In this document: positions 11,271 through 14,402 of the stretch, one piece after another
Layout of the letters: the number at the start of each line of letters is the position of its first letter
Numbering within the stretch: the stretch's first letter is position 1
Source: Callorhinchus milii
Lineage: Eukaryota
Direction: 5' to 3'
Length of the DNA stretch: 64,000 bases
Assembly (NCBI RefSeq): GCF_018977255.1
Contig: NW_024704744.1
Coordinates: forward strand, 50,406,001 to 50,470,000
Made by a program: the position numbers and the translations under genes
The notes under the pieces: generated by a model
The model's input: the letters and a program-made list of their open reading frames with translations, nothing else
Told to the model about the DNA's origin: nothing
The model's database searches: none

Positions 11271-14147
11271 TAACAACAACAACAAAATTACATTTATAGA
11301 TCGCCTTTCACGTCGGGAGGACGTCCCAAAGCGCTGAACAGTCAGGTGTCGGGGCCCAAGCATGGGGAAGGGGTGGTGTAGGGGTGAGGGAAGGCAGAGA
11401 GGGTGGGAGGATGGCTGAAGGCACGGTCAAAGAGGAGGGTCTTGAGGCGTGCCTTGAAGGAGGCAAGGTAGAGAGCGAGGCAAAGGGAGTTCCAGAGGGT
11501 GGGGGGAGAAGCTGAAGGCCCGACAGCCGATGGTGATCTTGCCCTATCCCCCTACTCCACCGTCTTGTAAAGAAGAGTATCGAAAAGAAGGGTCTTGAAA
11601 CCGGCCTTGAAGGAGGTAAGGGAGGAAGCGAGGCGAAGGGACTGTGGGATGGAGTTCCAAAGTGTGGGGACAGAGGCTGAAAGCCCAGCCACTGATGGTA
11701 GGGTGGGTCGGGCAGGAGACATGGAGCAGGCCGGAGCCCGCTGAACGGAGGGTGTGCGCAGGTTGGTAGGGAGTCAGCAGGTCAGAGAGGTAGGAGGGGG
11801 CAAGACCATGGATGGCCTTGAAAGTGAGGATGAGGATCTTGAACTCGATTATCTGGGGGATGGGGAGCCAGTGGAGTCGGGCGAGGGTGGGAGTGATGGG
11901 GTCACGGAGCCTGGTGCGTGAGAGTACACGAGCTGCAGAGTTTTGGATGATCTGCAGGTTGTGAAGGGAAGAGTTGGGAAGGCCGATGAGGAGGAAGTTC
12001 CCGTAGTCGAGCCTTGATGTGATGAACACGTGGGTGAGGGTTTCGGCAGCCTGAGGGGTGAGACAGTGGCGGAGTCTGGCAATGTTGCGGAGGTGGTGGT
12101 AGGCAGTGCCAGTCATGGCGCGGATGTGGGGGAGAAAGGACAGTTCAGGATCGAACAAATACCCAGATTCCTGACTGGCTCAGTGAGGTTGAGTGTGCAG
12201 CCGTGGAGGCTGATGCTGACAGCGCCTGAGATGCGGAGGCGCTGGCGTGAGCCAATCAGGAGGACCTCAGTCTTGCTGACGTTGAGTTGGAGAAAGTTGG
12301 CCCCCATCCAGGACTTAATGTCGGACAGGCAGTGGGTCAGGACGCCAGTATTCCTGAAGTTCAGGGTGGAGGCAGAGAAGTAGAGTTGGGTGTCATCCGC
12401 ATACATGTGGAAATTACCCCACATCTGTGGATGATGTCATCAAGGGCGAGCATGTAGATGGTGAAGAGGAGAGGACCGAGGACAGAGCCCTGAGGAACAC
12501 TGCACGAGACGGTGCGGGGGCTGGAGGAGAAGCTGTTTACTGTGACAAAGTGGAGGCGGTGTGAAAGGTAGGACTTGATCCAATCAAGGACAGAACCTTG
12601 AAGGTTGGGGTGGGAGGAGAGGCGGTGGAGGAGGATTGAGTGGTCCACGGTGTCAAGGTGGCGGAGGGGGACGAGGAGGTAGAGGGAGCCCTGGTCACAC
12701 ATGGTCAGGATGTTCTTTATAACCTTGACCAGAGCAGCTTCCAAGCTGTGGGCAGCATGGAAACCCGATTGGAGGGGTTCATGGAGGGAGTGAGAGGAGA
12801 GGAAAGAGCGAAGCTGGAAGGCAACGGCTCTCTCAAGGACCTTGCATTGGAAGGGGAGATTTGAGATGGGCCAGAAGCTAGATAGCTGTGATGCGTCAAG
12901 GGAAGGTTTCTTCAAGGTGGGGGTGATAGTGGCTATTTTAAGGGGGGAAGGAACAGTGCCAGATGACAGGAAGAGGTTAATGATGTCGGCAAGTATTGGG
13001 ACAAGGAGGTGGAGCTGGGATTTAAGGAGAGGGGTGGGGATGGGGTCCAGGGTGCAGGTGGTGGGCTTCATGGAGGTTACAATGGTGAAGACAGAGGAAA
13101 GGTGACAGGTTCAAAGGTGTGGAAGGACAGATGGGTAGTTGTCGAGTGGGTAGTTGTGTGGGGTGGGGGTAGGGAGGGGTTGGAAGTTGGGAGGGCAGAG
13201 GCAGCTGAGCGGATTCCCTCAATTTTGGACTCGGGGAAGTCCAGCATTTTCTCGCAGTGAAAGAATTTGCGAGGCATGTCGGGGAAGGTGGAGGAGTCGG
13301 TTGGTAGAGAACTGGAGCCTGGGGTTGCCTTTCGTTTCCAGGATTAACCTGGAATAGAAGGATGATTTGGCTGAGGCGAGAGCGGAGCGGTAGGTTTTGA
13401 TGAGGTCCAGCCAGATGTGGCAGTGGACCGTTAGGCTAGATTTGAGCCAAGTGCATTCGGCAGACCACCCCTGGCCCTTAAGTGAGTGGAGGTGGCTGGT
13501 GAACCATGGTGACGATCGGGAATAGGAGGCAGTTTAGGAGGTGAGGGGTTCAAGTACGTCGAGTGCAGTGGAGAGGGTGCTGTGGAGAAGAGTGAGTGCA
13601 GCGAGTGTGCTGGTGCGAGGGGTGGGCTAGAGGGGGAGGAGATCAGTGGACTCCAAGGCAGGGGCGAGGGATTGTGGGGAGATCTTCTTCCACGGGCAGT
13701 AGAAGATGGTGATAGGTTTGGAGGCAGTGGGGAGAGGGATATGGGAGTTGAGGGAGATGAAATGGTGGTCAGAGATGGCCTTGTCAGTGATGGTGACATC
13801 CAAGATGCTGAGACCCCGGGTGATCACCAGGTCGAACGGGTGACCGTGGGTGTGGGTAGCAGAGTGGAGGTGGAGGGTAAGGTTGAGAGAGGAGAATAGA
13901 GAGGAGATGTCTGAGGAGGTGGAGCAGGAGGGGGTGAAGTGGAGGTTGAAGTTGCCTAGGATGATGAGGCGGTCGGAGCAGAGGCAGAGGGAAGCAAGGA
14001 GGGTGGAGATGTCAGAGATGAAGGTGGGAGAGGATTTTGGGGAGCAATAAAGTAAGAGACTTTTTAGAGAGAGGTGGGAGGAATGGCAGATGGTAAGGTG
14101 TTCAAAAGAGGGGAACGAGACGGTGGAGTAGGGGGATAGGGCAAGAT
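11271..14147 (-). mobile_element. 5'-truncated L2 LINE ORF2 (APE + RT + C-terminus + 3' tail), frameshifted pseudo-copy
   Basis: APE motifs IILGNFNLH, THTHGHPFDLV, ISDHHFI; RT motifs [37 protein letters not shown]-terminal SRLDYGN..IQNSAAR..LHWLP; (gtt)n tail. Confidence 0.95.
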
Positions 14148-14402
14148 CACCATCGGCTGTCGGGCCTTCAGCCTCTTCCCCCACCTTTGGAACTCCCTTT
14201 GCCTCGCTTTCTCCCTTGCCTCCTTCAAGGCCCGCCTCAAGACCCTCCTCTTTGACTGTGCCTTCAGCCATCCTCCTACCCTCTCTGCCCTCCACCCTCC
14301 CTAATCCCAACCCCTCCGCTCAGGTCATAATCCCTGACTGTTCAGCACCTTGGAACATCCTCCTGATATGAAAGGTGCTTTACAAATGTCATTTTGTATT
14401 GT
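14148..14402 (+). mobile_element. Host L2 3' fragment, right half with 3' tail
   Basis: caccatcggctgtcgggccttcagc..ttcaaggcccgcctcaagaccctcctcttt..gaaaggtgctttacaaatgtcattttg resumes the 11110-11270 fragment. Confidence 0.85.

Follow-up and report, generated by a model that had tools for sequence, protein, structure and literature searches.

How does the finished 5′ junction of a retrotransposon come to lie, inverted, inside the 3′ end of the same element? The question is raised by positions 11271–14402 of a 64,000-nucleotide stretch of Callorhinchus milii DNA (the window, meaning the whole stretch analysed), embedded in a 992-Mb genome with abundant SINE and LINE copies. The initial annotation had described one L2 inserted in another, with its 5′ junction copied back into its own 3′ end. 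The L2-in-L2 arrangement is supported, as is the copying of approximately 176 nt over a distance of 2.5 kb once the 5′ junction was in place. The layout of the locus is as follows:

11122–11270, plus strand: host L2 of older subfamily B, left part (5′ half of a 3′ fragment of approximately 400 nt), closing with the left TSD, CAC, at 11268–11270
14145 to 11271, minus strand: the insert, a 5′-truncated L2-like LINE of subfamily A, antisense within the older L2 3′ fragment
11271–11392, minus strand: the insert's own 3′ end, subfamily A, with its (TGT)n tail at the target site; 24/24 diagnostic sites are A-type (11392–11277), and the sequence is 95–98% identical to many genomic copies
11393–11410, minus strand: homeologous switch interval between A and B 3′ ends, with a 10-nt perfect core
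11393–11535, minus strand: inverted copy (143 nt) of host 14148–14290; 13/14 diagnostic sites are B-type, and derived changes are common with the donor
11536–11568, plus strand: inverted copy of 14115–14147 (two untemplated bases and 31 nt of the insert APE region), carrying the private substitution 11563 (= 14120)
11569–11579, no strand: filler of 11 nt at the non-homologous junction, not subfamily sequence
11580–14145, minus strand: insert body, subfamily A, 5′-truncated, with a frameshifted ORF2 (partial APE, RT and C-terminal region)
14115–14290, plus strand: donor tract across the insert's 5′ junction, matching inverted 11393–11568 with 10 differences in 176
14146–14147, no strand: two untemplated bases at the insert's 5′ junction, without counterpart in 24/24 APE relatives and in the host relatives
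14148–14402, plus strand: host L2 subfamily B, 3′ half, opening with the right TSD, CAC, and ending in a TGTAT-type tail

The host halves 11122–11270 and 14148–14402 are consecutive in an intact copy at 55440–55844. The subfamily-A match stops at 14145, and host sequence restarts at 14148. The insert has CAC on both sides as its TSD, or 5 nt if one mismatch is allowed; PMC4245944 describes 5-bp TSDs for ZfL2-1. Pfam profiles PF00078 (E 5.7e-14) and PF14529 (E 3.7e-6; 27.2 bits, just under the curated cut-off of 27.4, in a truncated element) match the insert, in which the APE and RT frames are broken and ORF2 is spread across several frames. An ORF2 with APE and RT domains, a short tandem-repeat 3′ tail, 5′ truncation and a short TSD, all traits of the L2 clade, are present, and the (TGT)n tail is common to the aligned subfamily-A relatives shown. 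On C-terminal and tail features of that clade, the insert is a putative L2.

The closest genomic copies are 91–93% identical to the insert and 80–86% identical to the host right half (14148–14402). Non-CpG divergence from the family majority amounts to 38/1071 sites (3.5%) for the insert and 15/227 sites (6.6%) for the host right half; the host left half (11122–11270) diverges from its relatives by approximately 6%. The relatives are the best hits for each query rather than a random sample (29 for the body, 24 for APE, 28 for the host). A second inverted pair, 75% identical and 0.4–0.5 kb apart, is formed by the host left half and insert body 11698–11837, a simple outcome of the antisense insertion.

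The left arm is a mosaic. Positions 11511–11565 are the exact reverse complement of 14118–14172 and straddle the insert/host junction; the initial annotation had singled out this 55-nt match, which is indeed the maximal exact run, with the two untemplated bases 14146–14147 preceding the host. When 10 differences are shuffled over 176 nt, an exact run of this length turns up 23% of the time, so the unit that needs explanation is the 176-nt tract. On the same figure (P 0.23), a second, younger conversion behind the 55-nt run was rejected. Alignment of the arms (11282–11568 against 14115–14397) yields a single change-point at 11392|11393, where high similarity had been reported to end (11393/14290), with 10 differences in 176 columns inside the tract and 34 in 113 outside, a contrast reached in 0 of 2000 permutations. 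The outer arms are thus more diverged, as had been noted, and these 113 nt are simply the 3′ ends of subfamilies A and B. Diagnostic sites were scored with 29 subfamily-A relatives and 14 of the 28 subfamily-B relatives aligned. An A-type site at 11405 adjoins a B-type site at 11403, and the exact switch point within 11393–11410 is not fixed. The donor is intact, making the transfer non-reciprocal: insert and host sequence run uninterrupted through 14115–14402, and the sites of the host portion are B-type all along.

The copied tract carries host-derived deletions of 12 and 2 nt. Missing from both arms are 12 nt still present in the corresponding segment of the insert itself and in the copy at approximately 55.6 kb, in keeping with the earlier description; the deletion is, however, not strictly private, being found also in L077 and perhaps in L090. 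A motif search matched 3/28 host relatives, which had been chosen with a query bearing the deletion, and one of the three (L064) has a different deletion. The 12-nt deletion is a host mutation that supports copying and alone is no proof of it.

All 29 subfamily-A relatives are already 71–78% (mean 74%) identical to the host right arm, so that the arms are mostly older than the event, and the proposal that the event itself produced arms of approximately 290 bp does not hold. The event only made 143 nt 94% alike and added 33 nt, contributing 176 of the roughly 290 arm bases. The insert does contain a second C-terminal segment, as had been claimed, but the segment is host-derived and no duplicate of the insert's own. 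Outward-facing L2 tails are likewise present, but nesting one L2 antisense in another always produces them. An origin of the left arm in a third, separate insertion was rejected: towards its 3′ end the arm resumes the subfamily of the insert, in register, 16–33 nt beyond the point where the body stops.

The two ends of the tract are unlike each other. At the 11569/14115 end, insert and donor have neither homology nor microhomology, and homology is confined to the other end (11393–11410). The insert body ends at 11580, and 16–33 nt of family-A sequence are absent, with host sequence in their place. The filler repeats 11584–11593 at 9/10 nt; its match to the 30-nt flanks was equalled by 143/5000 shuffled fillers (p about 0.03) and is modest. 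Local repeats of this kind are given as the signature of SD-MMEJ in PMC7407515.

Since the copy includes the finished junction, copying followed 5′ joining. The initial annotation had left the event "during or after" integration; that it postdates the 5′ junction stands, and the timing is narrowed modestly towards after. Donor and copy have one non-CpG substitution in common (14120/11563), found in 0/24 APE relatives; as an exact 27-nt pattern, the 14120 variant occurs at these two places only, the family base being present at 19 loci. Of the 38 non-CpG differences in the insert, just 3 recur in at least three relatives, and variants of the source element therefore look rare. From the 14120 marker, a likelihood ratio of about 4 for later copying may be roughly estimated. 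The arms have 6–7 non-CpG differences in approximately 165 sites (the denominator being an estimate), or about 1.8–2.1% per lineage, against 3.5% for the insert. Under the null of copying at insertion, an age test gives P = 0.05–0.10 with all 38 insert differences counted and P = 0.24–0.37 with near-private differences only, neither being significant. Together, the sequence comparisons modestly favour copying after integration rather than during it.

The reading we prefer, at somewhat better than an even chance, is that the 176-nt inverted tract is a templated insertion from germline break repair some time after integration. The antisense insertion would have placed two L2 3′ ends, approximately 74% identical, in inverted orientation at a distance of 2.7 kb. 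A break would then have fallen within the 3′ end of the insert (between 11393 and 11580), and the left 3′ end would have paired with the host 3′ end at a conserved motif near 14273–14290. Extension would have copied 143 nt of the host, passed the junction and gone on for 33 nt within the 5′ end of the insert. The new strand, once released and without homology to the other broken end, would have been attached by synthesis-dependent end joining, in which approximately 10 nt were re-copied from just inside the other end in a polymerase theta-like manner and 16–33 nt of insert were replaced. One-ended templated insertion is likely because one end is homeologous and the other end-joined with filler. 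The scar itself likely does nothing.

Several observations argue for break repair: the mosaic arm with its sharp change-point (24/24 A-type against 13/14 B-type diagnostic sites); the asymmetric ends, with homeology at 11393–11410 and filler with its 9/10 local repeat at 11569–11579; the intact donor, the junction already existing when copied and the shared private substitution; and arms at 1.8–2.1% per lineage where the insert stands at 3.5% from the family majority. Against these, the age difference is not significant, the single shared private base may go back to a source element outside the sample or to an error of reverse transcriptase, and the filler matches only modestly better than chance would allow. 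The direction of copying is unreadable from the product, and a fork switch leaving at the filler and returning by homology would give the same sequence.

Break repair is also consistent with the finding that unique DNA is frequently copied to a nearby place in this genome, as private copies with no tie to LINE integration. A survey of 1.664 Mb (the window, the adjacent 600 kb and five 200-kb blocks on other contigs or arms near L2 hits, hence not random) was made with words occurring exactly twice, 0.1–12 kb apart. This method recovered the locus, which a plain BLAST filter at 90% had missed because the match continues into the outer arms. Among 40 clusters, 3 form one tandem array and 12 have a third spanning copy; the remaining 25 rows comprise 10 inverted copies (the studied tract among them) and 15 direct ones (14 events), or approximately 14 per Mb, with "private" judged against 0.17% of the genome only. 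The copies at L136/L137, L171, L267 and L124 are plain unique DNA. No private inverted copy was found at 110 other L2-centred loci, which speaks for break repair with the reservation that these loci span 3–3.6 kb and many include at most one end of their L2.

Individual copies in the survey vary widely. L121:3801-3990 (G000:C3:50483801-50483990) is an inverted, 87% identical copy of L120:8226-8043 (50478043-50478226), consisting of a 5′-truncated L2 with 40–46 nt of non-L2 flank, placed 5.7 kb away inside another L2 3′ end; it repeats approximately 70 nt of the receiving L2 and has the topology and polarity of the studied locus, and is older. L136:9074-9194 and L136:9910-L137:50 are approximately 130 nt of unique DNA, inverted, 0.7 kb apart and approximately 94% alike. 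In L153:8171-8267 and L153:9393-9493, approximately 100 nt from the interior of an L2 3′ end recur inverted 1.1 kb off in unrelated DNA. L226:2084-2467, 384 nt of unique DNA, recurs inverted and without a mismatch at L226:2722-3105, beyond a spacer of 254 nt, and is either very recent or an assembly artefact, and a local duplicate at L265, 100% identical, may also be an artefact. The 833-nt inverted copy L257:306-1137/L257:7686-8518 (98.4%, 6.5 kb apart) consists wholly of repeats, L2 body and SINE, and looks like a recent inverted duplication across a repeat junction. L258:66-361 and L258:650-945 are a 296-nt inverted repeat (93%, half repeat and half unique, 290-nt spacer), and L145:9932-L146:601 and L146:7860-8525 a direct duplicate of approximately 670 nt (98%, 7.9 kb apart).

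Unlikely, though next in standing, is a route coupled to integration, in which the first-strand cDNA was joined at 14146–14148 while the second strand was unfinished and the new junction was copied, either by a free end folding onto the homologous host 3′ end or by the growing second strand switching onto its own start. The donor lies at the insertion site, the ages overlap statistically, and the strand that entered by homology has the polarity of first-strand cDNA both at this locus and in the comparable L120/L121 pair, an agreement (2/2) that chance would give a quarter of the time. Comparable L1 products are on record: local templated pieces below 250 bp from within 15 bp of the site in 22/3,598 cases (10.1101/2024.08.27.596794), and 52–220 bp foldbacks at 0.3% of L1 insertions (PMC10191854). 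However, the shared private substitution would require a rare source variant or a reverse-transcriptase error. A plain first-strand template switch was rejected on geometry, the copied junction being absent at that stage; a twin-priming inversion, which predicts an inverted 5′ part, was rejected as well, 14145 to 11580 being all in one orientation.

A replication template switch of the FoSTeS/MMBIR type, long after integration, is improbable. A leftward nascent strand would stall near 11580, slip, prime near 14115 in the opposite direction, copy 176 nt and return through the A/B homeology at 11393–11410. The product would be identical and later timing would fit; under the model set out in PMC4888836, synthesis of low processivity may proceed in either direction and the strand may rejoin the template it left. 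The lack of microhomology between insert and donor at 11569/14115 and a filler shaped like an end-joining insertion tell against it.

It is doubtful that inverted neighbouring L2 ends act as recurrent germline traps, in which a strand of first-strand cDNA polarity enters a neighbour's 3′ end by homeology and overruns its 5′ junction, so that L2 integration or the L2 reverse transcriptase itself writes finished 5′ junctions into 3′ ends. The L120/L121 pair, with the same topology and polarity (2/2), is consistent with this idea. If true, it would imply an undescribed late step in LINE integration, with 5′ joining before completion of the second strand; PMC11702581 treats the order of 5′ joining and second-strand synthesis as still open.

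Very improbable, finally, is an assembly artefact or a mobile composite element: although the junctions are unbridged by independent contigs in four runs and other surveyed duplicates are 100% identical (L226, L265) and could be artefacts, the arms here differ at 10/176 positions with changes in both directions, and both junction patterns are limited to this locus in 992 Mb. Searched as a 28-nt pattern with 2 mismatches, the host/insert junction gives two genomic matches, both at this locus, and the filler junction gives one, so that the genome search proposed at the outset indicates a local event and the composite element was rejected. Normal L2 sequence at the junction, named beforehand as a possible refutation, was rejected too, the pattern being unique to the locus and the two untemplated bases lacking a counterpart in relatives. 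Since copying, the donor has acquired approximately 6 changes where the copy has the family base and the copy approximately 4 where the donor has it (one CpG column being ambiguous and one indel set differently by two aligners). As both arms bear their own mutations, misassembly is contradicted. Contigs of the four runs over 10800–14800 are repeat-swamped, with single-copy-depth pieces spanning the host left half and right flank and none bridging a junction; over 11355–11640 at 98%, cover is zero at 11545–11574. These gaps prove nothing and carry no weight either way.

Among known systems, break repair as preferred here resembles one-ended homeologous gene conversion with end joining (aborted SDSA), also labelled "one-sided invasion": one end enters a diverged repeat by homology, 100–200 nt are copied beyond the repeat boundary, and the other end is joined without homology. 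It differs in having as donor the 5′ junction of the element itself, 2.5 kb off, inverted and made by the element's own insertion, and in being an old fixed germline scar and not an induced break. DUP-TRP/INV-DUP, a rearrangement mediated by inverted repeats, is similar in having one inverted-repeat junction, one non-homologous junction and an extra inverted copy. The same points link the locus to FoSTeS/MMBIR as outlined in PMC4888836, whereas here only 176 nt are involved, without flanking duplication and between repeats approximately 74% alike. SD-MMEJ by polymerase theta (PMC7407515) matches the small deletion and the 11-nt filler, a near repeat of sequence immediately within the break, but covers the filler alone and not a 176-nt tract from kilobases off primed by repeat homeology; PMC7407515 also cites the LINE-to-LINE conversion of Tremblay, Jasin and Chartrand 2000. 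Templated insertions and 5′ foldback inversions of L1 (10.1101/2024.08.27.596794; PMC10191854) likewise combine a LINE with a target-site copy of less than 250 nt, an SDSA-like switch being proposed; they copy pre-existing flank at integration, whereas here the finished 5′ junction and insert sequence were copied and placed inside the 3′ end. A literature search (titles and abstract openings, few subscription papers) returned no paper on exactly such an arrangement; the supplement of the L1 preprint may hold similar cases.

The potential for long dsRNA raised by the initial annotation is unremarkable. The first 1.064 Mb surveyed contains 31 inverted pairs that match over 166 nt or more at an identity of 90% or higher and whose members lie within 15 kb of one another, 4 of them within 3 kb. 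One of the 31 is a SINE pair flanking the locus (about 10463–10786 and 18243–18561, matched over 10469–10786 and 18243–18555), from a young family of approximately 320 nt, 91% alike. Since 1.1–1.7 Mb contain approximately 24 local copies of the private kind, and inverted SINE pairs that are stronger, neither scar nor dsRNA potential is special. Folding of the left arm alone is uninformative (z −1.15). The 25 of 54 long stop-to-stop frames of the window that lie outside obvious repeats have no Pfam match; neither a gene nor a transcript could be linked to the locus, and none of the 24 sequence runs listed is on record as RNA. Elsewhere in the window, 24000–28000 is a CpG island (observed/expected 0.87–0.88; no Pfam match in long frames) and probably a promoter.

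The locus adds one case of local templated insertion, here within dead LINEs, and the scar is genuine yet ordinary. Being one fixed scar, confined to two defunct elements, it alters little. It is nonetheless a clear natural case of copying primed between repeats only approximately 74% alike, and such copying yields a chimeric L2 3′ end that may mislead subfamily and age assignment. The locus would gain weight if a genome-wide set had a strand bias tied to L2 integration.
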